Below are positions 6,507 to 53,942 of a DNA stretch of 58,424 nt, one piece after another (the first letter of the stretch is position 1; each line of letters opens with the position of its first letter). The position numbers were made by a program, and so were the translations under genes. The DNA lies in the NCBI GenBank assembly GCA_044892505.1, contig CM097883.1:403439577-403498000 (forward strand), written 5' to 3'. The stretch is from Schmidtea nova (lineage: Eukaryota). The notes beneath the pieces were generated by a model that did not search any database, was not told the origin of the DNA, and saw only the letters and a list, made by a program, of their open reading frames with translations.

Positions 6507-6563
6507 CCTTAGGCTGAAACATAAAATGAAAAGAAGGGACGTGAGTAGAGAGGGACAGGGTTA

Positions 6564-8210: not shown

Positions 8211-8435
8211 TTCTGATGTTATTTCATCGTATAGTTCGATAATAGTTCGATAATAGTTCGATTATAGGTCGATAACAAAATAATTTAAAAAACAAACTAT
8301 GTGTCGATTGATTTTTTGGTTAATAAATGTATTTCGTGGTTTTCTCTCAAGTCATTATCTTTCTCACTTAGCATCAAATAGATTATTTAACTTATATAAA
8401 TGGTCGACGTTAAATGTTCTACCTCGTTAATTATA

Positions 8436-9060
8436 GAGATTCGCGAATGGATGCAGTAAAAATCTCCAACATCTTCAATCACAATCGATAGGATCGCCTG
8501 CTAAGAGAATAACAGCGGTCGATCCAACGGCTGACGGCTACCAACGAGCAGCTCAAGCAGAAATGGTTTGCTCCAGACGAATGAAGAATCAAATAATGAA
8601 AACCACTCGGACACAGAAAGCTCTAACAGAAACTAAAGCGGAATTGGATGCAGTGCAACGAGAACTACGAAGTTGTCTAAACTCCATAACCAGGCTCTAC
8701 ATCGATATGGAGCTTCGAGCCATCATTAGGCCGATTACAGCCCAAAGATGGACTTCAACCGAATTACAGAACCCCTCAGTCGGAACCGAATGCAACGATC
8801 TGCTGTCTACACACACAGCCCAAATCCAGCCACTGTCAACTTACCTACCAAATCCTGTGGCCATCTCGAGAAAGAGACGATCATGGTCGAAACAGTGGCG
8901 ATGTAAATGAGGATTTGCGCAACAACTAGCCGCGCAAGTAGACCGCTTAGCGATCTGTCCGAATTCGAATAGTGAGACAGTTTGTATTTATGTATGGTTA
9001 TGGACGAGGCATCCCTAGCATACCTACGTAATTATTTAAAACCCACCCATAAACCCAGCA
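8436..9060 (+). mobile_element. Family X 3' fragment (copy a): frameshifted ORF B plus terminal block
   Basis: QLKQKWFAP/(frameshift)RRMKNQI..ELRSCLNSIT..LRAIIRPIT..SVGT..RKRR matches ORF B. Ends aacccacccataaacccagca like the other copies. Confidence 0.8.
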
Positions 9061-9689
9061 CCTCTATTAAAACAAAAATACAAATAAATACCATAACAGG
9101 TCAGACTCATATACAATATAACTCATAATCACATTTACTTCATCGATAAAATAATAGTCAAATAATTAAATGAAAGAATCAAATAAAATTGTTAATAATC
9201 AATCAGAATCATATAACTTATTATCACTGTCATTTTGAATTGTTGACTTTTCTTTTATTGGTGCTCTTTATCCACATTTTTATCCCTATTCTATAATCTT
9301 CGCTTATCTCAAATGTATCCGTTAATTTCCATGTATCTAACATATGGACAGATAGGTCCACTGGCAACCTTTCCACTTCGCCTGCCGACCACCCTTACCA
9401 AATAGTACGAAAGGACCTCAACAAAACTTCGATGTAAATAACCGTGAAAAAGGAGATTCGAGTTTTTTATACACGATGTTTTCGATATTCGTAAAAGTTA
9501 TCAATAAAAACGTATTTTTGTTTGTTATTTTTCTTAGCAAGATTATTATGCGGATCCTATTAATATTATTTAATTAGGGCAAAGAGGGTTAAGGGTAATT
9601 ATTTACCCAGGTTAAATGATTTTCGACAATTTTATAAACCTTAAGGCTCTTACTGCGACCTATTTAAGGATAGTAAAGTCATGAATTTA

Positions 9690-10555
9690 ATTTTCTAGTA
9701 TGGCAGCTGAAATTAATGGAAAATGAATCAAAGTCTGCAAATGAGTGTGCCGAAACCATAAGTGCCATTAGGCAGAAATAGGGGTTCTCAAGAAGAGAAT
9801 CATTCAAATGGAGGCACATGAAAAAAACTAGAGCGAGCACAATGGACAGGAGTCAATTTACCGCTGGAATTGGATGCGGTTCGATTAGAATTAAGGAACT
9901 GCCGTAAGAGCATGACGCAAGAGTTTATCGACGCCAACCTACGAGAACGGATCCGGCCGTTTACCTACGACGAATGGACAAAACCGTCATCCTCAACCGA
10001 AGCTAATAAAACCCCGCCAACGTATCCACAGGTACTGGATTGAAGCCAAAACGAAACCAAATTGGATCTAGACAACGAAGTCACCAACAAAGAGGGACGT
10101 TCGTTCGACAAAATTACGACACAATTAACATGATGGACCTATTGGCAGAAATCGTCGTATTATAAATTCTGTGTTGTAATAAAGCTAAATATACCCTTGC
10201 AGCGCTTTATGTACTTTCTTGATATAATTCAGTACTGTTCATTTTGTTTCGTCCCGTACATTAAATGCTGTAAATAAGATAGTTGAGAGAAAAGGATGTC
10301 TCAAAAATTAGTGACCGGCGACGGGATGTGAAAAGATTTAGAAATTGTCTTTCATTGACCGAGGAGAAGCCGTAGTAGAGGCAAGCCGGGAGGAGTTGGC
10401 CTCGAGATTGCTCATCTGCCAACTTGATCTATGCCGAAGTGTACAGCACTAACATGAGAACAAAAGAGTCTCCTGGGTACACACTCGTTAAGGAAGTATT
10501 TATGACGGTGTCCACAACAAAATGCGCTAAGACAAATCAACTGGTACACCCAACA
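9690..10555 (+). mobile_element. Family X 3' fragment (copy b): decayed ORF B, structured RNA and right terminus
   Basis: ELRNCRKSMTQEFIDANLRERIRPFTYDEW..MDLLAEIVVL*, then AATAAA, RNA motif at ~10360-10485, terminus cccaaca at 10549-10555. Confidence 0.8.
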
Positions 10556-12498: not shown

Positions 12499-13879
12499 AC
12501 ACCACAAGACACAACAGAAATTGTTCAACAGTATAAGTATAAGTATAAGTATATTGTATAGTAATAATTTATGTGAATACTCCTTCGAATACGCAAATGA
12601 AGAGGCTAGAAGTTATCTGAAAATTTGATTTCATTCATCACAAAAAAATATAATTTAATATTTTAGGTTTAATTCTACAACCGGTATCGACGGAAACGCA
12701 AGTGTTACTGCCTGTCAAATCCGTGTCGACATTTCGGCATTTTATTCAGTTTATGCGCACCCAATAGATGAAGAATATTTAACGGAAAATACAAGGATTT
12801 TACGCACAGTTGGTGCTCCCGATCCCTGTTCCACGGTAAGAAACAATAAATAATGATTTGGTTATGGCATCATGCAGAGAATCTTTTGAGATTTCACAGA
12901 ATGAGCAGAAATTAAATAATCAGCTCAAGTAAATTTGACTGATAAAACATAATAAAACAGCCAATGAGATCACAAAGTACTTCCTCTTATCTGTCAGTGA
13001 CCAACTCACTAATTGCATCAATAATTTTACGGGTGTGCATGGTGTGCACGGTGTGCATCACACACGGACACGTGATGCCTACTACCTCGCGAGTAATAAT
13101 ATTCGTCACTATTTTTATCATTTTCTGTGCATTTTTTAACTGAAATTTTCGTTTGTTTTCATTTCATCTTTAAATAATATTGTATTTTCTAATAAGAATG
13201 TAATAATTATAAATGTTTAAAGGTACACAAATTGTTTTTGTTACTTTTATTACTATTAGTTTGTGAATTTATTTTAATTATTTTTAGATCTAAAAATGTA
13301 TCCATTTATTTGCGCGCACAGCTTCACCAAACCGCAGGACTGACACTGCGTAAAAAATTTACAATCTTTAGTTTATTTTCAAAATTTTCATTTAAACTAA
13401 ATTTAATAATTATTTCAAACAGGTGAAACGTGCTTATCAGCTACATGGATATTTGTCGGTCCATATAAGCTCAAGGCAGACCATAAATAAAAGTTAAGAC
13501 CATTTCATGGTTGTATATATATATATATATATATTCTTGGGTCTACCAAAGATCTAAAAAGCACAAAAACATAATAACAATCAAAACAAGATAATGAAAA
13601 AGTAAACTATTAAAACATAGAAAACCTAATGAAAAGGATAAAAACAAAAAATTATGTAAATAATAAATTACCAATAAGAATAAAATAAGCCGAATTGATG
13701 GAGAATAGGCCGAAAGAAGATCTAGAATAGAAATATGGAAAATTCGCATAAAATTAAGAAAATAATAGTACAATTTATTAAATAATTATTTGGAAAAATA
13801 AGACCACCAGGCGAGAAAATCTAAAACTGAACTAGAATCAGGTAACAATTAATTAAAAATAATGAACTAACTTTGAAGG

Positions 13880-13950
13880 GCGGCCTGATCCTGATTGGTC
13901 AATCCAACCAACGCGATCAGTATAAATACCGACCCGAAAATCAGATTTTT
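13880..13950 (+). promoter_or_regulatory. Family X Pol II promoter (GC box, CCAAT box, TATA, Inr-like TCAG)
   Basis: gggcgg..ctgATTGGtc..(about 27 nt)..TATAAATA..aaaTCAGa. Same spacing in six copies (13890, 17500, 26038 plus; 27945, 30392, 31514 minus). Confidence 0.8.
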
Positions 13951-14899
13951 AGAATTTTTTAAGTTTTAAACTTGGAGACTTAAAATGACTTAACAGTTTT
14001 TAAGCGCTCACTAATTCAACTAATATTTTTCAAGAAGCACGTTGACATTGAAAGAAAAAGTAAACATTTTGTTATTGTTTCGAATAATTGTTCCCCGTGA
14101 TTTCGTTTTTATGTTAATATATGTTTTTAAGTTGCTCATTATTTTATTTTATAATATTTAATTATTTTAAATATAAATATGCTTCCTCAGTAGCTCACGC
14201 TGCGAGGGCGCAAGCCGTCTTCGTGGGGCTTTTTAGATCCACGAGATGGTGAGTGAGATAATATTTATAGGCTTAATAGAAGTTGCACGTAGAGACAATG
14301 TTTGTTGAATAAACGTTTTTATATAACCGTTTTGACTACCTACTTCACATAGGGACAATTTTTATACACAGTTTATTTTTGATAGCTTGATTTCGTATTG
14401 CACACAGTGACAGTGTTTTGAAATATCTTTTTAGATCGACAAGTTTGATTTCAATATCGCTCATAGGGATAGTTTTGTGCTAAGCATTTTAATACCAATA
14501 GTCCTGATAGCGACAGTTTTAATAAAGCGCTTTGATGCCGATTGAATTTGATCGATTCCAACTAGTAAAGAGTTTTGATAAGACATTGTGACCGGTTGCA
14601 CTTCGTAAATAGTTTCGATAAAAGTATTTTGATCCATGCACGTAGAGATAATTTGACTAGACATTTTTGATAACTCTGATCGCTGCACATAGCGACAGTT
14701 TTAATAAAACATTTTTTTATATCAATAGTTCCGATAAACATTTTACATAGCAACAATTTTCCGATAAGCATTCGTCGATGGTTTTGACTTCATAGTTTTC
14801 AAAGCGACCATTTTTTAATAAACTACTTCTATCCCGATTAAATTCTGATCGTTGTACATTGTTTCGTCGCGTCCAGCTCCAATTGATTTTCTGATTCCT

Positions 14900-15793
14900 G
14901 GCATAGCGCTCAGTGTCAGCTGTCATCTCTGGAATGTCTCCTCTCAGTGGCAATGAATCGTTTCCTTTCGATTTTATAAAATCTTTCGAGGCCGAGACGA
15001 GAATCCCGAAAGCTTTTGACTCACGATTGATATCCATTTGACGAGGATCCTCTAAAAGGGTCCTGACGCTGATTAGAAGCTCCAAAAGAAAAACAGTCCT
15101 TGGAATTGACTTCATTGCTTCTCCAAAACTCTCTAATAATCGTGACAGAGGTAAGTCCTCTTTTGAGGAGCATAATTTTAGATAATTCTTGCGTCCTTTA
15201 TTGATCATTTCCCTCAGATATGGTCTGTCTTTAGACGAAATTGGCCATTGTTCGAACTGAGATTGGAATGAAGTGATTAAATTGTCTTTTTGATTTGCGA
15301 GCATCGATTTTATATTATCAATTTTATTAGCATCATTGCCTTCAAGTGTATCTTCTATATCATCAATCATAAGTTTGGGGTTGGACAAAATGCTCATTCG
15401 GAACTTATAACAAAGTTTACAAATTGGAGAATTTTGGAGTTTTTCTGTAAGAGGTGTTCCACCAACATTCAATTTGCACCAATAATCACTGTCAGGTATC
15501 ACTGAATTAAATTGTAGCTTTTCTATAATTACTGACGATCGCACTTTATCAGAAATGATTGAATCTCGCGAAGACAACACATTAATTAAATCATCTACAA
15601 AAGAGCTCTCGATTCCATTGACCACATTCGAATTAGGATTCTCTTCATAACAAGCAGCTTTAACCAGGCTCTTTATAAAGGGAACTCCCAAGATACTGAG
15701 AAAGTCAGCACTTTCCCATAAACTATAATTTGAACCGCTATCAGAATATAGTTCGTTATCAAATTTCATTTCACCATTCATATTTAAATACAT
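14900..15793 (-). pseudogene. NAE1: 3'-truncated NEDD8-activating enzyme regulatory subunit (NAE1/APPBP1-like) fragment
   Basis: AFGILVSASKDFIKSKGNDSLPLRGDIPEMTADTERY matches the NAE1 segment FWILARALKEF..GNLPVRGTIPDMIADS.KY. Homology stops there and the frame runs on into family X intron repeats. Confidence 0.75.
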
Positions 15794-16134
15794 AGACTAA
15801 CAAAACTCTCCTTCACAAAACATTTATTCAATAATTTTCATAAAATTATTAATACATTTTCAAATCTTTTTTAAATCCCCAACTCAAAATATCTTTATAT
15901 TCTAAAAACCCACACAGGCAAAATAATCAAAATAGCCCAGATAAACAATTCGTCAAAAGCCACTTTTCAAATCAAAAAACCCCAATAATCCTTAAAAACT
16001 GAAACAGTAAAACAACACTGTTTTTAAACAAAACTTTTTAGATAAATTCCAAAACCTTCCATCGATCACTTTTTAATTTTTTAAGCGAAAATCAACATCA
16101 TCGCGTCTGTGTGTGCACACCAAGAAATCATGAC

Positions 16135-16902
16135 AACCAACCTGCCAGGGGTCGACACAAGTATATCGCAGCGATACAATTTGTTCATTGATGCTCTCAT
16201 TTCGACTCCACCGTACGAATAGCTGCATTTGACTTATGAATCACGGCACAATCTGTTGGCTACAGTGAATATTTGTCGGCACAATTCCCGTGTTGGGACT
16301 AGAATCACACATTTCGGGGAATTTGTATTAATTTTTTCACCAATATTTTCTACTATATCCTTGATTATTGGCACAAGAATTGCTACTGTTTTACCACTTC
16401 CGGTTTGCGCACATGCCATTAGATCTCTCTTTAATGTTATCATCGGAATTGTGTATTTCTGTACCGGCGTTAACTTTTTATAATCGAAATTGCGGATATT
16501 TGCCAGTAGGAATTCGGGTAGTTGTAATTCCTCAAATGATGTTATCGATTCTGGGATGTTTCTGCCGGTTACGTGGACTTGAATGTTGTCATAATTGTCG
16601 AAATTAATCCCACTATTCACGTGGAGTTGATAATCTTCAGCGTTGTCATCGGGAATGTAGCTAACTCGGGGGATTGTCATAGGAATATCTCCATCTTCGA
16701 TGAGTTTCACACGATTATTATTGTTATTGCTATATTCACGGACGGATTGGGAGAAATTCTCTTTGTTAGCGTTGATATTTAGCTTGTCAATTGAGAGGTC
16801 TTCTTGCTCTACTTCGTGGGAATTATTATTAGGTGTATTAATGACATTGTTCAACCTCCGTCCCCGTCCACGTCCAATTTCATTGAATTTACTGGTATCC
16901 AT
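16135..16902 (-). pseudogene. vasa: 3'-truncated Vasa/DDX4-like DEAD-box helicase fragment with a premature stop
   Basis: SYIP..GINFDNYDNIQVHVTG, Q motif TPVQKYTIP, AQTGSGKT, PTRELCRQI, TAA at 16236-16234, then in-frame YGG..CDILVSTPGRL. No DEAD motif follows. DDX3/PL10 is not excluded. Confidence 0.8.
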
Positions 16903-17487
16903 TTATAAGTATCGATAATAAATCACTTTATCTTATTAAAATTTTGCCTTTAACTTTTCTATGTAAGATTTATATAGATTTCGATAAGACCGTCTAACGG
17001 CTTCCGGCTTCCAGGCACGCCCACATCTCTCATAGCAATCAAGCCCCCAATTAATTATTTTAAATATTATTTAATTATTTTTAAAAATATTTTAAAAGCG
17101 GGCGCGACCATACATAATGATAGTTTTATTGCGGATCGTACCTAGTAATAGTGTTGGGCCCGCCAAATAGGCTAGAACAACAACAATAGAACGAAAGTTT
17201 AAAATAATAATGAAATAATAAACATAAAAATAGCAATAAAGACAAATTAAAAATAGGAATAAAATAGCAAATAATATTTAATAAGTTTCCAGTAAAAGGA
17301 AATTTTAAAAATAAACCGGTAAATAACAGCAAAAGGGGGCCTGAAATAAGAAAATTAAGAATTTAATAAACTAATAGTACAAATAATTAATTAATTACTC
17401 GAAAAACCAGGACCACCCAGCGAGAAACCGGAAAAGGAAATAAAATAATGTTTAGATTTAAATAAAATAATAAAAATACTTTGATGG

Positions 17488-17550
17488 ACGGTCTGATCCT
17501 GATTGGTCAATCCGACCAGCCGGATCAGTATAAATACCGATCCGAAAATC
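17488..17550 (+). promoter_or_regulatory. Family X promoter (CCAAT + TATA)
   Basis: ctgatcctgATTGGtcaatccgaccagccggatcagTATAAATAccga, itself an imperfect inverted repeat. Confidence 0.8.
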
Positions 17551-18606
17551 ACAACTTTAACTGTTATTTTTTAACAAAACTCGTTCAAGGAAACACACAC
17601 TTTTTATCAAAACTAAACTTTGATTTTAAAAAAACTCGTTCACTGTTAGAAACACATTTTGAAATTTTACTCTCACACAAGCCACCAGGAGATACCTACG
17701 AAGTAAATTTTGTTTTGTTTTAAATTGTGTATTTTCTATTGATATGTACCATGATTTTATCCATTAAAATTTATTTATTCTTGCCTTTAATTATCATTAT
17801 CATTATTGTTTATCATGCATATAGTCATACTTCCTAGGCTGCTCACGCGGCGAGGGAGTCCAAGTCGTCGTTGTGGGGCTTCACGGCCTCACATGGCGGT
17901 TCAACCTTTTTATTTTTTGTAATTTAGTAATTTGGAAAAGTTGGTTTAAATCAGGAAATGTCGAAAATTCGAATTAAATCCGGACGATTTATTGGCGAGA
18001 ATAAAGGGTTGTAATGTTCAATTATTTCCATACTTATTTAGGTTGATAAAATTTTAATCACGAAATGTCAATAATTCGACTAAGTCCAGACGATTTTCTG
18101 GCGATAAGTAAAATATCATTTGTTCGGTTGCACAAAGGGCGTAACGTGGTGAGCCGTGGGAAAGGTTTAGAGAGATGTCGGAAGGTGTGAAGCACCCAAG
18201 GGGTGGTAGGTATCAGCCTCCGAGGTATTAATATTCTAGGATAACTTTTGAACTCAGGAGCGCAAGCGAGGTGCTATAAGTTTATAGAAATTTTCGATAG
18301 AATCGATTGAAACTATCAGTTCATTTGGGGTCAAAGTGCAGGCATTAGAATATCAATCTGAATAACATAGACGAATTACGTCACAAAATTCCAAATCAAA
18401 TAAATTTAACATGTAACCAATTCTATAAATATCTTTATGCCGATCGCTGTATATAGCGCGGTAATTCAAATAAATCTTATCCTGATCGTCGTACATACTA
18501 TCCGACCGTGGTATATCGCGGCGATGATGTAACGTTAAAATTTCCTTACCCGAAAAGTATTCATGTCTAATAAAATTTATTTAAAATTCTTTAAATGAAA
18601 TAATAG

Positions 18607-19083
18607 ATGTCGACAGCTTGGAGTGAAAAGTTAACTCGGATCCGGAATTCAGGAAAGGAGGACATGGCGAATAGATGGGCTAATCAACTCAAGGAGTTGC
18701 CCCCGCCGATTTTACGTACCCTCAACGCCCAGGTATATAAGTGGCGACGCGGATTCAATCGGATATGCCCGTTTTCCATCTGGAGTGGAGGAAAAGATCG
18801 AATTCTCTATCACGGAGGACCTGATTGGCCACTCTCGGGAAAAAGCTACCCTCGCAAGTTCGGACGACTGATTATCGTAATCCGAGATGGCAATGATCAA
18901 CCCTGCCGAATTATCTACTGGGGACACATCCCTCGCAAGGAACTATGCAGGCTAGGTTTACAGGAGTTCCTACCACGGAAATCGTTTGGCAAAGAATGCC
19001 AGGAGGGACAACCTCCATTTTCGTGGGCTCAACTTCGGCAAATGCCAATTAACCATGAGTTACATAGCCTGTTTCGGCGATGA
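18607..19083 (+). CDS. Family X ORF A, 158 aa, unknown Trp/Gly/Pro-rich protein
   Basis: Intact ORF. AG acceptor immediately before the ATG (18605-06), AATAAA about 25 nt after the stop. Paralogs at 20935, 29328 (minus) and 27002 (minus). Confidence 0.8.
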   Translation: MSTAWSEKLTRIRNSGKEDMANRWANQLKELPPPILRTLNAQVYKWRRGFNRICPFSIWSGGKDRILYHGGPDWPLSGKSYPRKFGRLIIVIRDGNDQPCRIIYWGHIPRKELCRLGLQEFLPRKSFGKECQEGQPPFSWAQLRQMPINHELHSLFRR

Positions 19084-19248
19084 AATTTTGTTGACAGTGA
19101 TGATTAGTGAATAAAATCTTATTATTAATTAGTGGTCTTTGTTCTGGTTTTATCGTATTTTGACATAACAATAATTCACTTATATTGTAAATATAAACAT
19201 GTTTTAACATAAAAGCGGCAAATCATTGAATTTAAATCAATTACAGAA

Positions 19249-19845
19249 ATGAATATAGAAACAGCGCAAAGAGAACTCGAAAAGATGTGGAGAATCCGGA
19301 GAGCCCAGGACAAGGAATTGGGTCTCCTCAAGGAACAATTATCCAAGGCCGAGGCGCAAATCGCCTATTTGCGCAAAAGCTGGTTCGCTCCAGCTCGAAT
19401 GAAGGAACAGATTGGTAAAACGGAGCGTGCACAACGAACAGCAGAGGACTAAAAAATGGAATGGGAAGCTACGAAAATCGAGCTTCGGAAGTGCCTACAT
19501 TCCGTGACAGCCTCCTACATCGAACGGGAGCTGCGGGATCAAATCCGACCGGTAACTTATCAAGAATGGACGGCGGAGAAGAAGAGTGTAACTTCGATTG
19601 GCACAGACGTCGACGACCTTAGCGAAATTTGCAACGGGCCAGTTCCAGAAATCAAAGCGGCCACCCAAACTGCCAATACTCATCAGAAACGTAAGCGCAT
19701 AGGGCAGAAAAGGCGCCGTCAAAGAAAGCTGTTCGCTCAACGGATGCAGAACCAAGTCGACGATCTGCACAAATTGACAGAGAAGGAACTATTGGAAGAA
19801 ATATTTCCCCCAGCCGGAATTTTTACCGATTTGATTGGAAAATAA
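19249..19845 (+). pseudogene. Family X ORF B (coiled-coil + basic motif) with one in-frame TAA
   Basis: The two listed ORFs are one frame split by TAA at 19450-52, at the position where the paralog has Tyr (AEEYLVKWE). Acceptor at 19245-46. Confidence 0.85.
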
Positions 19846-20021
19846 ATACGAATTTCAAATTTTGGTCATTCTTGTTGTTTCATTAATTTAGTTTTTATTA
19901 ATAAGTAATAAGCAAATAAATAATTATGAGAGCGCTAGTTTAGGAAGCTTCCTGTAGAATAAATGATATCAAAGACCAATGTTCCGAAAGTTTATTGTGG
20001 ATTACATAGTATGTCATTAAA

Positions 20022-20170
20022 GCGTAAGTCCTTCTAACGGCAGCAATGAACCCGTAAACATAAATGGGGAGTAGTACTAGCAATAGTGCTCACCTGCCCA
20101 TCATTGTTTAACCACACTGCGAATCACCAACTTGATTACCCAGGGAAATAATCAAGGGCGCTTGAGTGTA
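20022..20170 (+). ncRNA. Family X conserved structured RNA (copy R3)
   Basis: AGTACTA-GCAA-TAGTGCT hairpin, GGAGT/CACCTG core, and a second domain with an ATCACCAA loop and a cttgatta/taatcaag stem. Covaries with five other copies. Confidence 0.8.
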
Positions 20171-20934
20171 TAATTGCACATTTTATGTATGATCATGGAT
20201 GATGGATTAGTCATTGTTAGAACATTTTTCGTCTAACCCCTCCATGAACCCAGCAATAGTTTCGATTTCATATTTTATAGCACTAGTGTGGATTTCACCG
20301 TTTATAGCGATAGTTGACGACACCTTATTCTTAATATTAGTTTGAGTTTTTAACATTTATTTTTGCACAGTGAGGATTGTGAGCCACACAATTTTATATC
20401 AACCAAGAGGACGATGTTAGCGTTGGTCTCGCCAAATAATGCTTTGTTACCCGTATAAAGTTCCATCCAGAGGACTAATGCTACAATCAACATCAGTTTA
20501 ATGATTATATTAGATATATCTAGCGTACGTCGGTATGCCTAATTACTAGTTGGCATTAGATAAGTCACCCATAGATATAACAGGGGTGTTAGACAAATTG
20601 ATTTAGAAATACCTGTGTGATATTTAGACGGGGTTCTAGGTAGAGTTTTATGGGGAACTGCAATTCACGTATGCTCAGTCACGACTATTAAATAAGAATG
20701 CACAAAGTATCATCGCCACACCTATATAATATAAAATTTATAAAACCATAGTTCACCTGAATCAATTTACAAATCAGTCATACCCGATAATATCAGGCTT
20801 AATTATACTGTATAATAAGAATTTTCCAAGAATGGAATTATCACCTAAAATTTTCATACCGAGGATTGAGGCGAAAATATTCGACAAAAGATTTAAATAA
20901 TGATTATATAACTATTTGGTGTTTTCCAATGCAG

Positions 20935-21459
20935 ATGGAACCTAAATCAATAGAACAGTGCGGGGCAGCTCAGAGAGGGATAACTAATCCAACTGGCATT
21001 TCATCAAGGAGGACCAGTCAAGGGATGAAAAATCTACCACCCCCGATTCTGAGGACGGTGAATGCACAAATGTTCAAATGGAGGCGGGCATTCGGGGAGA
21101 AAAGCCCATTTTCTGTTTGGGAAACCGGTCGAGACAAGGTGATCTATCGAGGAGGCCCCGGTTGGCCAATCTCAGCAAACCAATGTTATTCGTCTAAATT
21201 CGGGAGAATCATCATCATTGTCTACAATCACAATCAGGAGCCGCAAAGAGTGATATATTGGGGACACATCCCTCAAGGCAAACTCGCCGAACAAGGCCTA
21301 AATTTGTTTACTTCGCCGCGCCCTCTCGGAAAAACGCATGAGAAAAGGATGCCAGATTTTTCACTCGCGGGACTTCGTCAAACCTCCATCGATGCGGGCC
21401 TCCACGTTGTCCATGTGTTTACCAAACTATGGCATAATATTGTGATTGATACCCAGTAG
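20935..21459 (+). CDS. Family X ORF A paralog, ~174 aa
   Basis: cag|ATG start, LPPPILRTVNAQMFKWRR..PFSVW..YRGGPGWP..IYWGHIP, AATAAA just after the stop. Confidence 0.8.
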   Translation: MEPKSIEQCGAAQRGITNPTGISSRRTSQGMKNLPPPILRTVNAQMFKWRRAFGEKSPFSVWETGRDKVIYRGGPGWPISANQCYSSKFGRIIIIVYNHNQEPQRVIYWGHIPQGKLAEQGLNLFTSPRPLGKTHEKRMPDFSLAGLRQTSIDAGLHVVHVFTKLWHNIVIDTQ

Positions 21460-21623
21460 TCAATGAGAATAAATTTGTACCTAAATTTGTTTTTTGTTTG
21501 TCTTAGCAAAGTATTGTTTATTTTACTCATAAAACATCTAGATATTTTACTATGAGTATTGTTAAAAAGCAATTAAATTTCTACTCCTATTTTTCCAAAA
21601 CCTAATTATCTTATTTGTGCAGA

Positions 21624-22217
21624 ATGATCCGAGAGACAGATCCCCAAGCCGAACGAGAGAAAGCTTTGAGAATACGAATTAGTTTAGAAAAAGAAATTAA
21701 GCAAGTAAAAACCCAATTAGCTCAAGCAGAGGCACAAATCCAATATCTAAGTAAGAGCTGGTTTGCGCCAGCGCGGATGAAAAATCAGCTGACTTGTACG
21801 GAACGCGTCCAGCGAACAGCGGAAGAATACCTGGTCAAGTGGGAGGCAAATAAAATCGAGCTCCGAAAATGCCTCCACTCAGTGACGACCTCATTTATTA
21901 ACACTGAACTCAGAGCACAGATCAGGCCCATCACGTATGAAAATTGGGTGGGATATAAGAAACCCGCATGTTCAGTAGGAACTGATGTCAAGGGTTTGGA
22001 GGCCGTAACCGTTTTAACTCCACCACAGGTCACGGAAATCGCTGCAAGTTCCAACAGCATTAAGAAGAGAAAGCGAATAGGATTCAAGCGCCGAAGACAG
22101 AAGAAACTGTTCGCTCTGCAGTTGCAGGAACATGTCGAACGAATGGCCGATATGAGCGAGATGGATTTGCTAGCTGAGATTCTCACACTCAACAGAGATT
22201 TTCAAGAATTATTATAA
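21624..22217 (+). CDS. Family X ORF B paralog, ~197 aa, intact
   Basis: cag|aATG start, heptad-like N-terminus, WFAPARMKNQ, ELRKCLHSVT, KRKRIGFKRRR, LLAEIL, AATAAA after the stop. Confidence 0.8.
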   Translation: MIRETDPQAEREKALRIRISLEKEIKQVKTQLAQAEAQIQYLSKSWFAPARMKNQLTCTERVQRTAEEYLVKWEANKIELRKCLHSVTTSFINTELRAQIRPITYENWVGYKKPACSVGTDVKGLEAVTVLTPPQVTEIAASSNSIKKRKRIGFKRRRQKKLFALQLQEHVERMADMSEMDLLAEILTLNRDFQELL

Positions 22218-22355
22218 TTAAATAAATTTCGACGCCATAACGCATTTTTCTTTTGTCTTATATAGTTTAAGGAGTTTGTAATCTGATTAAATCCCTATTT
22301 AAAAGACGTTTTTATTTATTTTTGAAATTTGAGCATAAATATTGCGAACATAATA

Positions 22356-22500
22356 GCGTAAGACCTTCTAGCGGCAGCAGGAACCCGTGAAAATAAATGG
22401 GGAGTAGTTCCAGCAATGGAGCTCACCTGTCCATCATTTTTCAATCACCTTGTGCATTTCCAACCTAACTGTATGGGGAACAGTTAGGGGCGCTCGATTG
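22356..22500 (+). ncRNA. Family X conserved structured RNA (copy R4)
   Basis: AGTTCCA-GCAA-TGGAGCT and cctaactgt/acagttagg, compensatory relative to R3. Confidence 0.8.
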
Positions 22501-23659
22501 ATATAGTGTATGTTTATGCATGATTATGCATAGGGTCTCCCTAGCATAGTTACATATCATTTTCTCAACCCTTCCATAAACCCAGGAATAAATAAATATA
22601 TTATAAATTTTTAATTTACTGTAAAATTAAATTAGTATAAAGCAGCTTATGCCGTTCCCGTCAAAGAATAGGTAACCCTCACGAATAGTATATTTATTGG
22701 ATATTTGGCACTGGAAACGGGAAACAAATCTTGCAAAACGTAAAAAGGAAGAATACGTGATAGTGGCGAGTGTCACTCTGTTTTTATTTTAAATTTGTAT
22801 TTTTCTAATCATAATTTGGGGAAAAAAAGTTTTTTGTAATTTTTATTGCCAATTTTCGTAAATTTATTTTGGCAATTACTTTTAGATTTGAAAAAAATGT
22901 ATCCATTTATTTTTGTCACCACAAACCTTAGGACCCACCATTATCGTAATCCAAGCAATTTATATAACTATTTTAAATATGCTAAAAAATATCAGGAAAA
23001 CTAATCTTTGTTCTAGTAATTTTAACTACCATTAATTTTTTGTGATGCTTTTGTCTTTCATTATTATTTATTCATTTTATATTATTATTTCATTTATTAT
23101 TTGTTTTGTTGGATTGGTTATATATTGTTTTTTTCAAATAATTGAGTGAACCTGTGCCGAACCTCCAAGCAGTTCTCAAGGTTACGAATCACTGCAGTAG
23201 TAGTATCTGCGGAAGAATCGAATCGAAGAAAGACAAACACAAGTTCATTATTGCAAGAACCTAATATAACTGACGTTGAGACTTTCGATATTCTAGCACG
23301 TCGGCCTTATGAATGACAATGACGTCGAGAGATTTGGATTTAGTTATTGATATGTTACAATAAAAGTATGAATTTCAGTAAATGAATAAATTTAACTAGT
23401 AAAGTATAAACACTTTTGCTAGAAAATGACGGAAATGATTTCAGTGGTTAACCTTACAAAATTTGACCTAAGTAATTACGCTAAATTTAGTGAAGGGTTT
23501 ATTATAATTATTATTACAATTGTTGTGTTCTGATATAAAAATGATGGATCTTAAAAACAAGGAAAACCAAAAACATAGTTAAAAATCATCGAAATATTTA
23601 AAGTCCGAAAATTAATTGAAATTTCAGAAAAATTAATATTTACCGGGAGAAACAGATAT

Positions 23660-25620
23660 GGTTGAACGCCGACTCGAGAAACGAACCCAAATATATTAAT
23701 AAAAATTTAGTGAGGGGTCTCTAAGAAAAGTAATAAGAAAAAACAAATTAATTAATCCCTTAATGGAAAACACGAGCTAATGAAAAGCCTGAGCAGTGTG
23801 GTAAACCGGGATGTGAAGAAAGCCGAGCCGTATGAAAAAGCCCGGGTATTCAAAATAATTAATGTCATTTTTAGTAAATCATCTAAATAGTCAGCCGGTG
23901 AAATTCCTCCGGAATTACCGAAATAATTGTCAAGCAGTGATTAAAATGTTTTGACAGCAACAGTATAAAAAGAGCTGTTGAAAGACCAGGCGCCCAAAAA
24001 CCTGCTAACAGAATCGGAGCGTATACTATTGATATACAACGAGCTAGAGGTTAGTAAAGTTAGAAGAGAAACAAATTTTTATGTAAAATATTAACTATGT
24101 TAATGTCCAAAAAAGGTGATTTCCCCTTGAGTAACCCGCCTTAAGTCAATAAACCTTGTTATTGAAAGAGGAGTGCAAATACAGTGAAAATTGTGATTTG
24201 TTTTTGAAAAGTCAATAAATTTATTCTGTGTTGGCTTTTTGTCAATTAATTAATAAGGAAAGGACATAGGAAGTCAGAGATTAACCGACCATTCCATTAT
24301 AATCCAACTTTTTGGTAAGCCCGGCGTGATTATAGTCGGTGAAACGAAAATAAATTGGTGAAAATTGAAATAGTAAAAACGAGATAAATTTTAGTGCTGA
24401 AAATAAAAAAAAATTGAAAAAAAATTGTGGTGATTGAAACAAAACAAAAATAAAAAATTGAAAGAGGATATTGACGATAATCAGTTCAAGATTAAAAAAA
24501 GGCAATATTAATAATTGTAATATTTGAAAATTTAGACGAGAAAGAGTTGTGCCAAAGAAAGTTTACAATCTGTGAAATAAGAAATATTTGGAAAATATGA
24601 TAAGCAATCCCAACAGTAATGATGAAATAGTAATGTCTATTATCTAGACAAACAATGGCAACGGCTTTGGGAGCTGTCAGAAACTGCAGTTGATCAAGAT
24701 GGAGGATATCCGGTTGAATTCATTGATTTCATGGAGAATTATTTAAAATACGCATAAGCTTACGGATGGAGTCAGACGATCATGGTACAGCGGTTACCAC
24801 TTCATTTAAAGAGAACAGTAAGAAATGCCTGGCAACAAATTGACAAAAGAAAATGATTTGAGAAGGCTGAAAGATGCATTGACAGCAAATTTGATCGAAG
24901 GTGACATTAAAAGAATAATACGTTAGAAATTCTACAATTGAATACAAAAGCCAGATGAGTCGGTAAGCGAATTTCCACATAATTTAACTACTCTTGCAGA
25001 AAAAGCTTTTGAAGTAAAAATTGGACAAGCTGAGGTTGTGAAACAAGTGAAAGAATTATTACAAGATCAATTTTTAACAGGAGTTAAATGAGATCAAGAA
25101 AGCATTACGCTTTGTTGACTACAATAATTTTGATGAATTGATCAAAAAGGCCATGAAAATTGAATTGAATTTAAAAACTACTCAGTAAAAAGCTGAATTC
25201 TTTGCAACTATAAGTGAAACAAGAAGAAAAATCAATAACTCCAATTCGAAATAACGAACTTCAAAAATCAACCAGCCCATCGCCGAAGCTCAGAGTGAAA
25301 TCTGAATCGAGAAAGTCAACAGAAGGTTTGAAAAATGAGAATGCAGTCATTGTCAAAGAATGGGACATAACATAAATAAATGTTGGTTTAAAAACGTTTT
25401 ATTAAAATGAACACCAATAGTCAGCGGGCTAATGACAACATACAGTGTTGCAATTGAAGAAGAAAAGGACATGTTTCACGAAATTGTTTAGCAAGATCAA
25501 GATCTCCATCAACGTCTCCATCACAGCAAAGAAGTAGAGTAAATCTCCGAAGTCAAATCCAATGCCACTCTTGGCACCTTTTTATTTTGCTTATTATAAA
25601 TTTGCACTATTCAGCCAGAA
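23660..25620 (+). mobile_element. Ty3/Gypsy 5' LTR, PBS and decayed gag
   Basis: LTR end near 24308, PBS tggtaagcccggcgtgat at 24312 (tRNA-Trp-like), retrotransposon gag motifs (YGWSQ..ESVSE), knuckle CSHCQRMGHNINKC. The LTR start is approximate. Confidence 0.8.
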
Positions 25621-25672: not shown

Positions 25673-26835
25673 TGTTGGGACAGCAAAACATCTAAATAGG
25701 CAAAAACATTTACGATTAATTAAAACAAAAAGTTAAAAAGTTAATTAAATTTAGTCCTAAAGGCCAACCAGAACTAAAAATAAATAAAGTAAAGCCTCAT
25801 AAAGGAAATAATAAATTACCAATTATAGGATTATACCCAAAACGTCAGGAACCACGGGATAAAGAAAATATAGAATGGAAAATATAGAAATAATAACAAA
25901 TTTAATAAATAAAAGTACTTTTTATTAAATAATTGACCAAAAAATTGGACCACCGAGGTAGGAATGGTAATCTGAAAATAAAATAAGATAAAATTAATTA
26001 AAATAATGAGATCTACTTTGAAGGGCGGCCGGATCCTGATTGGTCGGTTCAGCCAGAGTAAACAGTATATATACTGATCCAAATCTCGTATAAGAGCAAT
26101 TTTTTTAAACTGTTCACACTGTGAAATTGTCGACTCAACATACATTTTACAAACATTAAACTATTCAAAACTATAAATTGAAGCTTTGCCGAAGAATTTC
26201 GAAGTAATTTTTTTCCGTTTGATTGCCTATGATTTCATCTATTATGATTGTAATGTTATTGTATATATGATTTTGTTATGATAATATGATTTTTACTATG
26301 AATTATTATATATTGTTTTATATATTTATATGATAATTCCTTAAAGATTTTTGAGCGCTACCTTAAGAGCTAAATGCTACGAGGGCGCAATCCGTGGTCG
26401 TGGAGCTCAGTAGTTACACGCCATGGTGAGTGAATTTAAATATATGATTTTAACAAATTTTAACTATCTGAGCGAACAGACGAAAATTCGTAGAGATTTG
26501 CACATGGGACAGTCAACATAGCGTTAGATCGTGCTATATAAAACATTCAAAATAGCGTCATGCATATTCCACACACAACACATTAGCACTGCAGTAGAGT
26601 GACACACGGGCAGTTGAATCGAATTGCAGCAGTTCGATAACTAGATCCTTCCAGTGGTATAATATTGATTGCACCACATAAATCGCGACTAGAACACTCA
26701 AAGGGCATCAAAGTGGCACAAATATCCAAATGACATCGTATTAATGCGACCGTAGAGTAACAACGAAAATGTCAGATCAGTTCAACATATAGACTAGCAA
26801 ATAGCGCAACACAGACAGACAGAGCGAGTTCTAAT
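25673..26835 (+). mobile_element. Family X 5' fragment (copy f)
   Basis: TGTTGGG start, promoter 26025-26075, leader hairpins 26357-26425, ATG|GTGAGT donor, cacatgggac intron motif. Confidence 0.8.
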
Positions 26836-26839
26836 TAAT

Positions 26840-28329
26840 CGGTAAACCACCTGTTGACCACCTGAATGATTTCGAATGGTGCTGGTTTTAGAGGGCTGAT
26901 CCGCACTCGGTTTCGTTTGAGTTGCCCGTTTTTCTATCCCCGCTGATTCTCTTTCCTTTTATATACTTTCGGTTTTCTCTTTAGTAGCTTCATATTTGAC
27001 ATTTTGTCTAGACAATGACACAAAAAAAATCATTTATTATTTTGGAAAACGTATTTGTGAAATATAATATTCTCTCTCCTCGCACATTGTATTTTATTAC
27101 ACGCTTTCCCTTTATGTACTGGGTCGAGTTTACGATGAGAAACTGTCGATCTAAGTTAGTAAAAAACATATATTACTGGTATCTGCTCTCTAACCTTTGA
27201 TTGTTCTAAATGAGCCTATTTGTTTGGAATTACTGTTGAAAATCTACAGTTTGTAGTTATTCTGCAGTGATATTACTTCGGTGCATGTTGGAAAAAGGTT
27301 TTCGTTCGAAAAACTTCGGGTACCTTCTAATAACGCATCTCATGTCTACTCTGGGTTAGGCTGTTTCAGTACTTAGAAAAATTCAGTAGAATTGTGCCTT
27401 CATCACAACACTTTTGTGTAATTTCTCGCCCCTTGATTTCATTGTCCCATGTGCAACTCTGAAAAAACTTTATTATATTTTAGACATTATTGACTTCTCT
27501 ACCGGGTGTAAGGCCTCTAAGCACCACGACGCGGACTTAGACCCTGGGAACATGTAGCTCCCATTTGGCGCCCTAATATCTATAGTTATAATATAGTGTA
27601 AAATCATCAAAATTCAACAAATTATAAAATATAATGATATAAAACATGATTACAATTATACGGCATAAATCATATAGCAATAAAATATTAATACACATAA
27701 ACCAAAGTACCTAAATTTGATCCGCAATTTTCGGTAAAAATTCTGTCTAAAATATGCTTGTCTGTTGTCCTGAAAATCAGTCTAAATCGAATCAAGTTCA
27801 AATTGAATTCACTCAAGTAAATGCAGTGCAATGGCATATAAGGCATGTTTTCAACTAAATTCTGATCAGTATATATAGTATATTGGTCAGTCTAGACCAG
27901 ACAGATCAGTATATATTATATACTGATCTGTCTGGTCTAGACTGACCAATCAAGTTTGGCCGCTTCCATGGTAGGTCTCATTATTATTTTGTTTTACCTA
28001 ATTAATTTTTATTTTTTCAGGTTGAACTCTCTCTAGGTGGTCCTAATTTTGGATCAATTATTCAATAAAAAGTACTTTTATTTTGTTTAATTTGTTTAAT
28101 ATTCTACATTTTATTTGGTTTTAGATTCCTTATTCAATGACAAATTTATGATTTCTCTTGGCCACTCTATTCCCTAATTTATAAATTTATCTATAATTTA
28201 TTTATAATTTATTTATAATTTATTTATGTCTTTTAAATCCAAAATTTAAATTTCTTAATCTACGTTTTTCTTTTTTGTTTTAATTATCACTAATTTTTTT
28301 CCTTTTTACTCTTTTTAGCTGGCCCAACA
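26840..28329 (-). mobile_element. Family X 5' fragment (copy g) with truncated ORF A (ATG 27002)
   Basis: TGTTGGG at 28329, promoter palindrome, hairpins 27503-27575, acceptor 27008-10, MSNMKLLKRK..LKPAPFEIIQ. Confidence 0.8.
27882..27950. repeat. Perfect 33-bp-arm palindrome duplicating the CCAAT-TATA promoter
   Basis: attggtcagtctagaccagacagatcagtatat-tat-atatactgatctgtctggtctagactgaccaat. Confidence 0.95.
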
Positions 28330-28803
28330 AACTTATAAAACCTAGTTAATTTCGGACCGGATTCAAAATGGTATCCGACAAAAATAAGAGATTTGAGAGA
28401 ATGGGGTAACTTTTAAAAGGGGAAAAACCAGAAATCGAGCCGGGGCAAAATTTATCGGGGCATTATAACGACTCTCTCATCTGATTTGATTTAGGATAGA
28501 CCCCAGAGGGACGTTCCCGTCACGTTTATGAAGGATATAAAGCATGAATTATATAAAGCATGTATTCAACTTATTACAACGGTAAATTTATCGGTGGCTT
28601 ATATTTTACTTAAATAATATAATATTATAATGTAGGAAAATGAGCACTATTAATTCTAATACAAGTATTGACTGAATTTTTATGAATTTGTTGAAACTTT
28701 ATCATCGCCGCTTCAAGAATTTTAGAGGTTTAATTTATTGTGCTGAATTACTAACAAAATGACTAAAAGAACTTGCATTTACTAAAACATTTATTGAATT
28801 AAA

Positions 28804-29328
28804 TTATTCGCTGGACATTTTTCCTCGATAGGAAAATATGGTCCGGATTTGCAGATTCATTTTGACTTCGGTGGGAAGGTTGGCAGTAGTTTTCAGCCGT
28901 TCTTTTTCGGCTTCCCGGAGTGGTCGGATTGCGACATTGAAGATGATCCCCAGCTCCTTGAATGTTGAGACAGGAATATAACCCCAATAAATTACGAAAT
29001 TCGGGAATCCGTTTTCGACCAGCATTAGGATAAACCACTCCGAGTGTCATCGTTCGAATTCTTCACCCGGAATTATGGGCCAGTTAGCACATCCTCGGTA
29101 CCATACGTGATGGCGTGGGTGATCCCACACGGTGAAGGGACATGCAGTATCTAATTCCCTCCTCCAGGCCCACATCTTCTGGTGAACCTACTGGATGATA
29201 TCGAAAGGAGCGGGCTTTAGACGACTGATCCGTACTATATTTCGCTTGAGCTGACCGTTTTTCCATCCCCACTGATTCTCTGGTTTGACTGCTCTCCGTT
29301 TTCTCTTTAGCACATTTACATTTGACAT
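28804..29328 (-). pseudogene. Family X ORF A with two in-frame stops
   Basis: LKPAPFDIIQ*VHQKMWAWRK..CPFTVW..YRGCANWP..ER*HSEWFILM..VIYWGYIP in one frame. Confidence 0.85.
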
Positions 29329-29600
29329 TTTTCCTGGACAAACACAAAAATTTTATCATTTATTATTTCAAATAATAGTCAGGTTAAATTTAATATTCTC
29401 TCTCCTCGCTCGTTGTAGTTTAACACGCTTATACCCTTGATGCTCTGGGTCGTTGTTATGATGAGGAAAACTGTCGAACTGAGATGGTAGAAACTTATAT
29501 CTTTACTTATGTCTAGTCTCCGATTTTTATTGTTTTAATTGCGCTTATTCGTTCGTCTATCACTGTTGCCAATTTACGGGGTGTAATTACTCTGTAGCGA

Positions 29601-29927
29601 TGTATGCAAAAAATGCTTTTGACCCAAAAAATTCATTCTCATGGCGCCTCTCATGTCTATACCGGGGTCGGCTGTCTCAATAATATAATTCTCTCACTTC
29701 AACTAATTCGTGTGATTTGCTGACCCTTAATTTCATCTGTCCCATGTGCGAACCTCTAAAAAATGTATGCAAAAAATGCTTTTGACCCAAAAAATTCATT
29801 CTCATGGCGTCTCTCATGTCTATACCGGGGTCGGCTGTCTCAATAATATAATTCTCTCACTTCAACTAATTCGTGTGATTTGCTGACCCTTAATTTCATC
29901 TGTCCCATGTGCGAACCTCTAAAAAAT
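29601..29927. repeat. 162-bp near-perfect tandem duplication in the family X intron
   Basis: Units start at 29601 and 29763. One visible substitution (gcgcctc / gcgtctc). Confidence 0.9.
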
Positions 29928-30771
29928 GTTATTATAGCTTAGATGTTACTAGTTTTCCTGAAAACTTTAATATATTTTAAACGTTTCCAACTCTCATACC
30001 GGGTGTGGAGCCTCTAAGCACCACGACGCGGATCTACACCCTGGGAACTTGTAGCTCCCATTTGGCGCAATAATTATATATGACACTGATTAAAATTATT
30101 AATATATAACATATAATTATTATAACAAAATTTACAGCAAAAATCATGAGCGACAGCATTAAAATAATAAAACCAAAGTACCTAATTCACAATTCTGGTT
30201 TCGAAATTCTAGATACGGTAATACTAGGTCCAACTATAGTCTAGTTTCAATTGATCGGCTGGATAGTTGTATTGAAAAAAATCAGTCAAGTTAGATTGAA
30301 TCAAAGTCTAGTCTAACTCAAGTCAAAATTTGTTCATGTTTTTAACTGAATTTCAATCGGTATTTATATCGATTTGGCTGGATCAGACTAACCAATCAGG
30401 TTTGATCGTCTCCACCGTAGGTCTCATTATTTATTTTATTTACCTAATTAATTTTTTGTTTTTCAGATTCAATACTCTCTAGGTGGTCCAGTTTTCCAAC
30501 CAATTTTCCAATTACAAGTACTTTTATTTTATTAAATTGTTAATTTTCTACATTTTATTTGTCTTAGGTACCTCTTATGACGGCTAATTTTAAGATCCAT
30601 CTAAAACTTCTCTATAATTTATTTATAATTAAATAGTAATTTATTTATCTTTTATTTATATTATCCTTTTTTTTTACATTTAACATTCGCATTTCTTAGC
30701 TTATATTTTTTCCTTTTGTTTTAATTGTTATTCATTTATTTTCCTTTTTTCTCTGTTTAGCTGGTCCAACA

Positions 30772-31875
30772 CTATGTACAGCTCTAACTTCGTTTAGCAG
30801 ATGTATTACTACAGTATCTTAATACCAATTTGTACATCTAATTCTCTCACGAATAAGAATGGCTTTGGTTGAACTCTGTTTTTACCAATATGCCAAACGA
30901 TGCCTATGTGAGAAAAATTTCATTCAACTTATGAAGCGAAAACTTCGTTACTATGTGGAATATTAATCACAATCCCTACAGCGGGTATAAACTGTTTTCT
31001 ACGGGATTCTAGTTTATTGCGTATAATATTGCTCCTATAAAATCAAAACTCGTGCAACATAATACCTCAACAGCCTATCACTATGTGCCTCAAACAACTG
31101 TGCAAAATGTCTCTATGTGCAACTCTAATCAACAAAACCAAAAAACTTTCTCACTCACCGTCTCGTGGCGCTGAAAAGTCCCACGACGATGGCTGGCTCC
31201 CTCGCAGCGCTAGTTACCGAGGAAACATATCTATTAAAAATCAATAAATGAAAATTTATATGGTTAAAATAATGCATAAATAGAATTCATTATATCATAA
31301 AAACAAAATCATGAGGAGGAATCAAAATATACTAATACAAAACAATGAATAACATTACTTTCACTTCCAATTGCCAAAGATTCAAATTTCTAATAAATCA
31401 GTAGGTGCTCAAAACAGTTGAATAGTTTCAAGTCACACAAATTTGAAAATATAAAAATTCTAAAGTTCTGATTTTTGGGTCGGTATTTATACTGATCTCG
31501 TTGGTCAGATTGACCAATCAGGATCAGGCTGCCTTCAAAGTATACTCATTATTTTTAATTAATTTATACCATATTTTATTTCAGCTCTAAATTTCTCTCC
31601 GGGTGGTCTCCATTTTTTAAAGTAATTATTCAATTAATTGCACATTTATTTGATAATTTTTAGGCAAATTTTGCTGTTTTTTAGTTTTAGATTTGTTGTT
31701 GGCCTGTTCCTCATTTATTCGAATTATTTTATACTTACAGGTTATTTATTATTACTTAATTATTTATTTTTATCCTTTTTCTTTAGGTTTTCCTGTTTCA
31801 ATAAAATTATTTTTATTATTTTGTTTTAATGATTGTTAAGTTTTTACATTTTTAAGTCTTATGGTGGGCCCAACA
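30772..31875 (-). mobile_element. Family X 5' fragment (copy i), interrupted by copy h
   Basis: TGTTGGG at 31875, promoter 31484-31518, hairpins 31159-31226, ACG|GTGAGT donor, cacatag repeats. Confidence 0.8.
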
Positions 31876-53935: not shown

Positions 53936-53942
53936 GTAAGCT

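Follow-up and report, generated by a model that had tools for sequence, protein, structure and literature searches.

Burro-type elements are, to our knowledge, the largest known long terminal repeat (LTR) retrotransposons, and they may be proviruses. As described for dugesiid planarians, Burro/GYPSM1 elements measure ~30 kb with their LTRs and encode a single polyprotein of ~5,000 aa or more, comprising a CCHC gag, an env-like fusion domain placed in frame between gag and protease, the protease, reverse transcriptase, RNase H and integrase domains, and ankyrin; a TRAF/MATH domain and accessory open reading frames (ORFs) belong to the same description (PMC6431247). BURRO1 RNA increases upon smedwi-2 RNAi (PMC8532177). 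Here we analyze a stretch of Schmidtea nova DNA (assembly GCA_044892505.1, contig CM097883.1, positions 403,439,577 to 403,498,000 of the forward strand; 58,424 nt, hereafter the window) that contains a solo LTR of such an element, and we describe two genes, A and B, located inside this LTR.

The elements to which this LTR belongs resemble Burro/GYPSM1 in size, polyprotein plan, fusion domain, ankyrin, TRAF/MATH domain and accessory ORFs (PMC6431247). They differ in that four separate ORFs follow pol, one of which encodes TRAF/MATH, and the available part of the published account mentions neither ORFs within the LTRs nor the expression of accessory ORFs. Cer1 of C. elegans is likewise a gypsy-type LTR element in an animal that uses spliced leader (SL) splicing, and its spliced subgenomic mRNA, which occurs with and without SL1 acquired by trans-splicing (PMC3315495), encodes CERV, a regulator needed for the export of genomic RNA (PMC10309623). 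CERV, in contrast, is made from a multi-exon mRNA that shares peptides with GAG and not from single-exon ORFs of an LTR, and the likeness between the two systems is one of expression plan.

Coding sequence within U3 is familiar from mouse mammary tumour virus (MMTV; sag) and human immunodeficiency virus (HIV; nef), and the adenovirus major late unit combines one leader with several acceptors and several poly(A) signals. The likeness to adenovirus is an analogy without homology, and the cis junctions here are predicted. Foamy virus LTRs resemble the present one in that a donor within the LTR precedes a poly(A) signal (PMC3694450). Unlike foamy virus, MMTV and HIV, the planarian LTR places two complete ORFs, with acceptors and poly(A) signals of their own, downstream of its own TATA promoter. 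With same-strand ORFs separated by less than 300 nt and SL RNA genes in the genome, the element recalls the SL operons of flatworms (PMC12582326), whereas here the ORFs lie inside a retroelement and behind cis donors, and SL addition is predicted. Our literature search returned no description of ORFs inside Burro LTRs, which the original element papers or their supplements might annotate, and no report of LTR-borne selected genes with their own acceptors, a leader intron or a motif antisense to the SL (anti-SL motif), primary descriptions being outside its range. The element family is known; the LTR genes A and B with their own acceptors, the likely leader intron and the anti-SL motif were not found described in the literature searched.

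Two selected genes inside the LTR of a giant retrotransposon

The segment from 17152 to 20255 of the window is a solo LTR left by a giant gypsy retrotransposon of the Burro type, as its ends match those of young LTRs and ATAG is duplicated on both flanks (Table 1). A first-pass annotation, made from the sequence alone, had described a virus-like expression unit without recognizing an LTR; the whole unit is the LTR, and the other coordinates given for it are heads and tails of older LTRs of the same kind. This focal LTR is an old copy, with DNA identity of 85-89% to the close relatives fetched and 71% to the nearest young lineage. An identical 4-bp target duplication was present in 16 of the 18 LTR relatives for which both ends were located.

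Querying the 1.25-Gb genome with ORF B gave 150 scored places from 9,011 candidates, many forming same-strand pairs ~26.4 kb apart, and ORF A gave 4,073 candidates genome-wide in a similar pattern. All five pairs fetched from a first young lineage are full elements with LTRs of 3.0 kb that are 99.8-100% alike, begin with TGTTGGG and end with CCCAGCA. A second young lineage (n=4 elements), the nearest to the window copy, has LTRs of 3.14-3.16 kb with 1-4 differing sites; a 4-bp target duplication flanks all four of its elements perfectly and three of the five in the first lineage. Both LTRs of the young full-length elements contain ORFs A and B. The elements are 29,485 and 29,778 nt in full length, and their body consists of ORF C with a C3HC4 RING, a huge polyprotein and, behind pol, ORFs D-G, so that five accessory ORFs (C-G) accompany the LTR-borne A and B. 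The polyprotein, open in two of the five elements of the first young lineage (5,491 and 5,495 aa), contains the Pfam domains zf-CCHC, RVP, RVT_1, RT_RNaseH and rve, with Ank_2 after the integrase and an env-like viral fusion domain (PF24664, E 1.5e-70, residues 1926-2266) in frame ahead of RVP at 2453; ORF E carries MATH and zf-TRAF domains. The BIR and BCL2-like motifs expected of a Burro-type element were not reported by Pfam at E 0.001, no profile-profile search having been run. The element body fits the published description of planarian Burro elements (PMC6431247), an assignment by described anatomy. Since the two young lineages share 93.8% identity across 22.5 kb of body sequence and yet the middles of their LTRs barely align as DNA, the LTR was either exchanged or is evolving much faster.

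A and B are real genes under purifying selection. The ratio of nonsynonymous to synonymous substitution (dN/dS; Nei-Gojobori, unsaturated pairs) is 0.08-0.15 for A and 0.04-0.10 for B, and between the main lineages, where synonymous sites are saturated, protein identity is kept at 33-38% (A) and 55-65% (B). Open copies of B encode 196-206 aa. The B copy of the focal LTR is dead, interrupted by a stop codon, and stops likewise interrupt the A copies at 29328 and 27002. Neither protein could be assigned to a Pfam family, and neither a homologue of near length nor a solved relative was found for either; one weak match (E 3.7e-4), covering 41 positions of an unrelated-looking protein of 2,025 aa, was rejected as a homologue. 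The structural model of A is poor (predicted local distance difference test, pLDDT, 60), and a fold search with it gave a best Z of 3.0 and no viral match; primase N-terminal-type families, suggested as leads by an atlas, scored below 0.9 and were unsupported by the fold search. The model of B is helical with a predicted template modelling score (pTM) of 0.29, and B is predicted to have long helices and a disordered linker, along with a conserved Arg/Lys-rich motif and a tail that is acidic-hydrophobic.

Further observations concern the elements as such. The young elements have a primer site, TGGGGGCTCAGCCGGGA, 6 nt past the LTR (loci L011 7350-7370 and L014 780-800), which we take to be tRNA-Pro-like, and ahead of the 3' LTR the plus-strand priming region is not an unbroken stretch of purines. 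Element copies recur at 33-kb spacing, a 5' LTR is repeated together with an identical flank, and a 611-nt flank is duplicated on both sides of one element (C1:590.83-590.96 Mb, C1:239.38-239.43 Mb and L011/L014 flanks); these are duplications of element-bearing DNA. Distant relatives of ORF B (42-43% identity) lie at 8563-9061 and 9825-9977 (+) of the window and distant relatives of the LTR end block described below, with a 17/18 anti-SL motif, at 35725-35973 (-), indicating several older families.

Splice, poly(A) and SL-related signals of the LTR

All statements on splicing, here and below, derive from conserved anatomy. Acceptors were counted in 53 aligned LTR copies, in which the ATG was located in 50 for A and 51 for B (none located in 3 and 2), and 1,904 ATGs of the window served as background. 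The first-pass annotation had placed an AG 0-6 nt ahead of the start at six sites; it is present at all six, 0, 2, 0, 1, 5 and 5 nt before the ATG, and the same holds for 49/50 A copies and 51/51 B copies as compared to 29% of background ATGs. A YAG (Y, pyrimidine) precedes the ATG in 48 of the 50 A copies and in all 51 B copies (background, 14%), the AG-ATG distance being 0 in 48 copies of A and always 1 or 2 in B. As they fall into only ~5 lineages, the copies are not independent; between lineages the bases upstream of the acceptors differ freely and the YAG is kept. Pyrimidine richness, also claimed for these acceptors, was not confirmed: the pyrimidine fraction is 0.47 at both sites of the focal LTR and 0.65-0.76 at the other four, and over all copies the upstream sequence is AT-rich (A 0.41-0.45, T 0.42-0.44, C 0.05-0.07). 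As host acceptors (three trans-splice and five cis), read by comparing SL-bearing retrocopies with three intron-containing parent genes, are likewise AT-rich AG ends, this is no objection to their use. In both young lineages an AG also stands 0-3 nt before the ATG of each of ORFs D-G, and in ORF C an AG precedes the second ATG. Private acceptors in front of the individual ORFs, as expected of an alternatively cis-spliced viral unit, are found. On unspliced RNA, 14 ATGs would stand ahead of A and 27 ahead of B, so that some RNA processing is needed.

The CCAAT-type box at 17501 and the TATA box at 17529 were confirmed, whereas the TCAG initiator proposed with them lies only ~22 nt from the TATA box and is not common to the copies. 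The leader, formerly described as ~300 nt long and non-coding, contains four ATGs in the focal copy and 4-9 in all 41 copies with a promoter. We consider it likely, from the conserved sites, that a short intron starting at a donor at 17703 is hidden in this leader, a feature the first-pass annotation had missed. Of six aligned lineage representatives, five have a conserved GTAA(A/T)T site behind GAA, 120-175 nt past the TATA box, and the remaining one has a similar site. Surveyed in 40 of 44 copies (four are without promoter or block), the predicted intron spans 109-155 nt (82 in one copy) and would remove 3-6 ATGs, leaving a predicted exon 2 of 55-74 nt whose last ATG is in frame with ORF A in 40/40 copies; the 17703-type donor was chosen by a rule favouring T-rich followers. 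Its GTAAAT fits the donors read in host genes (n=5: GTAAAT, GTAATC, GTAAGT, GTATGC and GTGAGA). The second donor, which would be joined to acceptor A, is GTGAGC or GTGAGT in four lineages and GTTCAA, unlike any of the host donors, throughout the focal sub-lineage and its young relatives. All six donor coordinates of the first-pass annotation do have GT, and three of them GTGAGT (14249, 26426 and 31158), whereas the focal GCG/GTTCAA is a poor donor. Covariation in the hairpin block corresponding to exon 2 is weak (4/17 pairs), and a ribozyme reading of this block, judged by eye, was dropped. The CCAAT-type and TATA boxes each lie within an imperfect palindrome (17501-17546), and one copy has a near-perfect palindrome of 69 nt (27882-27950).

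An AATAAA was said to follow each complete ORF, which holds, together with a GT/T-rich tract, for nearly all older copies and not for part of the young lineages. Counted from -9 to +60 nt of the stop, it occurs by lineage in 20/21, 10/10, 0/4, 5/9 and 9/9 copies after A and in 20/21, 10/10, 4/4, 3/9 and 4/9 copies after B, with a background of 10-24% per 42 nt, higher for the 69-nt interval counted, and three AATAAA per kb in the window. Four more AATAAA are present between the donor and ORF A, and the older LTR copy has the signal at 21468 and 22221. As the canonical signal is found at only ~41% of planarian poly(A) sites (PMC5068929), loss of AATAAA does not exclude a poly(A) site.

The genome contains three copies of SL RNA genes at C2:409.01 Mb; their 42-nt exon ends in ATG, and they have a GT donor and, flanked by hairpins, a single strand rich in U. 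The spacer between A and B is 183 nt in young elements and 165 nt in the window, and those from pol through D, E, F and G are 126, 92, 111 and 79 nt; most of these spacers have AATAAA, and none contains a GTRAG donor (R, purine). Operon candidates of flatworms were defined as genes no more than 300 bp apart, and cis-splicing was strongly depleted where operons are resolved and common at the sites of first genes, acceptors being widely shared by cis- and trans-splicing (PMC12582326). An upstream cis donor can out-compete the SL at an acceptor, the 'donor first' rule (PMC4558846).

The last 234 nt of the LTR form a structured block, in which 24/49 pairs covary over 10 sequences, a value reached by 0/500 shuffles and compared to 2-5 in slid controls, the structure being derived from the same 10 sequences. 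The anti-SL motif of this region pairs at 16-17 of 18 positions in 43/62 motif copies, and in the other 19, all of one lineage, 1 nt is deleted. Within the LTR the motif gives the best duplex with the SL, at -24.1 kcal/mol as compared to -16.3 to -22.4 for 30 shuffles, a narrow margin, and a YAG lies within 16 nt upstream in 43/46 distinct copies (background, 0.29). In one young lineage ATAAG replaces GTAAG in the motif, whereby the reading as a donor is lost and pairing with the SL is kept.

Table 1. Coordinates in the window of the focal LTR, its predicted signals and related LTR copies.
Feature	Position	Strand	Remarks
Solo (focal) LTR	17152..20255	+	TGTTGGG...CCCAGCA ends; target duplication ATAG at 17148-17151 and 20256-20259
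CCAAT-type box and TATA box	17501..17536	+	predicted start ~17559, from TATA spacing
Predicted leader exon 1	17559..17702	+	ATG-free in 36/40 copies
Predicted short T-rich intron	17703..17837	+	GAA/GTAAAT ... YAG at 17822-24 or 17835-37; holds upstream ATGs
GC-rich two-hairpin block, predicted exon 2	17831..17898	+	last ATG in frame with A if joined at 17899
Second donor to acceptor A, predicted intron 2	17899..18606	+	GTTCAA here; GTGAGC/GTGAGT in other lineages
ORF A	18607..19083	+	158 aa, open; no known family; predicted alpha+beta fold, low confidence
AATAAA after ORF A	19110..19115	+	followed by GT/T-rich tract; 136 nt before acceptor B
ORF B	19249..19845	+	behind AG at 19245-46; broken by in-frame TAA at 19450
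AATAAA overlapping ORF B stop	19841..19846	+
YAG and anti-SL motif	20007..20041	+	YAG at 20007-09; 18-nt motif at 20024-41, antisense to SL nt 1-18, 16/18 paired
Conserved structured RNA block, LTR 3' end	20022..20255	+	24/49 pairs changed on both sides
Older LTR of same kind, likely a single LTR split by insertions	13535..22587	+	head 13535-14300, ORF A 20935-21459, ORF B 21624-22217, end block 22356-22587
LTR head (promoter and leader), related lineage	25673..26430	+
Truncated LTR	26700..28329	-	broken ORF A
Truncated LTR	28800..30771	-	ORF A with two in-frame stops
LTR head (promoter and leader)	31108..31875	-

Cis- and trans-splicing as candidate routes to A and B

We tentatively propose, with a probability of about 0.42, that A is cis-spliced to the leader and that B, together with ORFs D-G, is probably SL trans-spliced. 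Transcription would start at ~17559 from the TATA promoter near the 5' end of the LTR, the short intron would remove upstream ATGs and the leader would then be joined to acceptor A. The later steps are less supported: cleavage at the poly(A) signal after A may free an uncapped RNA, which, as happens in operons, could gain the 42-nt SL at acceptor B, and ORFs D-G, closely spaced behind pol, may be resolved likewise. This proposal weighs the operon-size spacers, the SL RNA genes, the operon rules of flatworms and the precedent of Cer1 against the advantage of an upstream donor. Separate spliced mRNAs for A and B from one upstream promoter, as first suggested, agree with the anatomy, whereas a single leader with a single donor is too simple, there being two donor-like sites of which the one named is weak; SL trans-splicing, ranked second at that time, is at least as likely for B, given the SL RNA genes and spacers of 79-183 nt. 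As for function, we speculate that B may bind viral RNA in the nucleus through its Arg-rich motif, which we liken to the basic domains of Tat and Rev, and may help full-length RNA to escape the splice and poly(A) sites in the manner of Rev or CERV.

Several points weigh against this proposal. In the focal lineage the second donor is a poor one, and the T-richness following the 17703 donor is partly circular, because the selection rule favours T-rich followers. The AATAAA after A is missing in 4/4 copies of the young lineage nearest to the focal LTR, and the other young lineage is without it in 4/9 copies after A and in 6/9 after B. That an upstream cis donor can out-compete the SL (PMC4558846) is a point in favour of cis-splicing for B. 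Full-length RNA must read through every such poly(A) signal, and no mechanism for this was found; that foamy viruses pass the poly(A) signal of their LTR by U1 binding to the LTR donor (PMC3694450) is a lead only. The role suggested for B depends on the likeness of its motif. Four sequencing runs of unknown kind, mapped to one 10-kb stretch, are contigs that behaved like DNA (flat cover, host repeats deepest); their joint table was swamped by a flanking repeat, and among the 15 joints listed of 381 none was a predicted junction, which makes these runs uninformative. Nine junction probes (SL to A, second donor to A in two versions, first donor to A, first donor to B, SL to B, SL to end block and first donor to exon 2 in two versions) all had 0 matches in the genome, as compared to 480 and 50 for positive-control probes of natural sequence; this blank is weak, since a single probe reaches only one or two lineages and few retrocopies are to be expected.

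The strongest alternative, close behind our proposal and clearly ahead of the other two, is the plan of the first-pass annotation with a corrected leader: a leader of one or two exons would be alternatively cis-spliced to either A or B, perhaps also to C and D-G, and every mRNA would end at a poly(A) site of its own, in the way of adenovirus late and complex-retrovirus units. Two donor-like sites that are each followed by T-rich sequence, the GTGAGC/GTGAGT second donor of four lineages and the exon-2 ATG in frame with A in every copy surveyed would agree with this view, as would the 'donor first' rule (PMC4558846) and the sharing of acceptors in flatworms (PMC12582326). It is, however, at odds with GTTCAA at the second donor of the focal and the nearest young lineage and with spacers of operon dimensions, and it would require introns of more than 20 kb for D-G.

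It is improbable, though consistent with part of the data, that the whole element including its genomic RNA is an SL operon, with cleavage behind B in the 5' LTR and addition of the SL at the YAG before the end block. Host trans-splicing would in that case resolve a polycistron from one LTR promoter into mRNAs for the two proteins encoded in the LTR and several internal accessory ones. The anti-SL motif would then fold back on the SL, R-U5 would be only ~250 nt and A and B would lie in U3. This would account for the motif as the best SL duplex in the LTR, its upstream YAG and the covarying end block, and neither a 2.6-kb strong-stop DNA nor poly(A) suppression in the 5' LTR would be required. 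The pattern was, however, noticed after the fact and over ~5 independent lineages, the motif is also part of a short internal helix and in most lineages can be read as a GTAAG donor, the region upstream is not AG-free, the 3' LTR must still be read through and no poly(A) signal was found in the end block. Moreover, a second LTR family, described below, has the SL ~105 nt into LTRs of 1.5-2.6 kb, so that a long R-U5 seems tolerable. Equally improbable is that A and B are made without splicing, from unspliced or separately initiated RNAs, the AGs belonging to the initiation context, internal promoters or internal ribosome entry: the lack of a pyrimidine tract and the A-rich context of many starts would suit this view, but the AG-ATG distance differs between lineages (0-5 nt) while the YAG is kept, host acceptors have the same look, 14-27 upstream ATGs would precede the starts and no second TATA/CCAAT module was found by the pattern used.

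Neighbouring elements and significance

A second, non-autonomous LTR family is represented at 14717-17110 (-) of the window, where the host SL lies ~105 nt into the LTR and is followed by pieces of many host mRNAs; the solo LTR adjoins the end of this element, 41 nt away. An SL 25-mer has 867 exact matches in the genome, and the same upstream head was present in 30/30 loci fetched (L091-L120). Six paired loci were examined (L138-L143), and the part of them read in detail showed TG...CA LTRs of 1.5-2.6 kb, a polypurine tract, (TAA)n targets and a primer site, TGGTAGCAGAGC, which is presumably initiator-tRNA-like. The elements carry mosaic ORFs of ubiquitin, HSP90 and FHA fragments, and 3/3 captured pieces were traced to intron-containing parent genes; it is likely that strand transfer through the shared SL captures the 5' ends of trans-spliced mRNAs. 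In the window, an intronless 5' fragment of a vasa/PL10-type DEAD-box mRNA lies at 16234-16902 (-) behind the SL at 16960-17001, with similar copies at C1:10.97 Mb.

Other gypsy elements have left decayed remnants of gag and protease at 24217-25500 and 36894-38035 (+) and at 6500-8250 (-), with a different primer-site-like TGGT(A/G)AGCCC at ~24313 and 36985. An isolated 5S rRNA copy interrupts one gag remnant at 38127-38235 (+) and is the only Rfam match in the window, nothing credible being reported in the LTR. A single-exon RING protein of 461 aa is encoded at 43316-44701 (+). Ig-like domain exons are located at 1129-2151 (-), 48144-48866 (+) and 53272-53955 (+), and 1416-1947 and 48315-48846 form an inverted duplication of 91% identity.

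The SL-bearing, mRNA-capturing family may be more novel than the finding of genes in the LTR. For the Burro-type element, the anatomy provides exact junctions, i.e., two LTR genes, a likely leader intron, private acceptors and operon-size spacers for four more genes, and an LTR whose own promoter is followed by poly(A) signals has a read-through problem to solve. If SL trans-splicing acts here, a retroelement would be using the logic of operons, which would explain why its LTR carries a motif antisense to the leader of its host.

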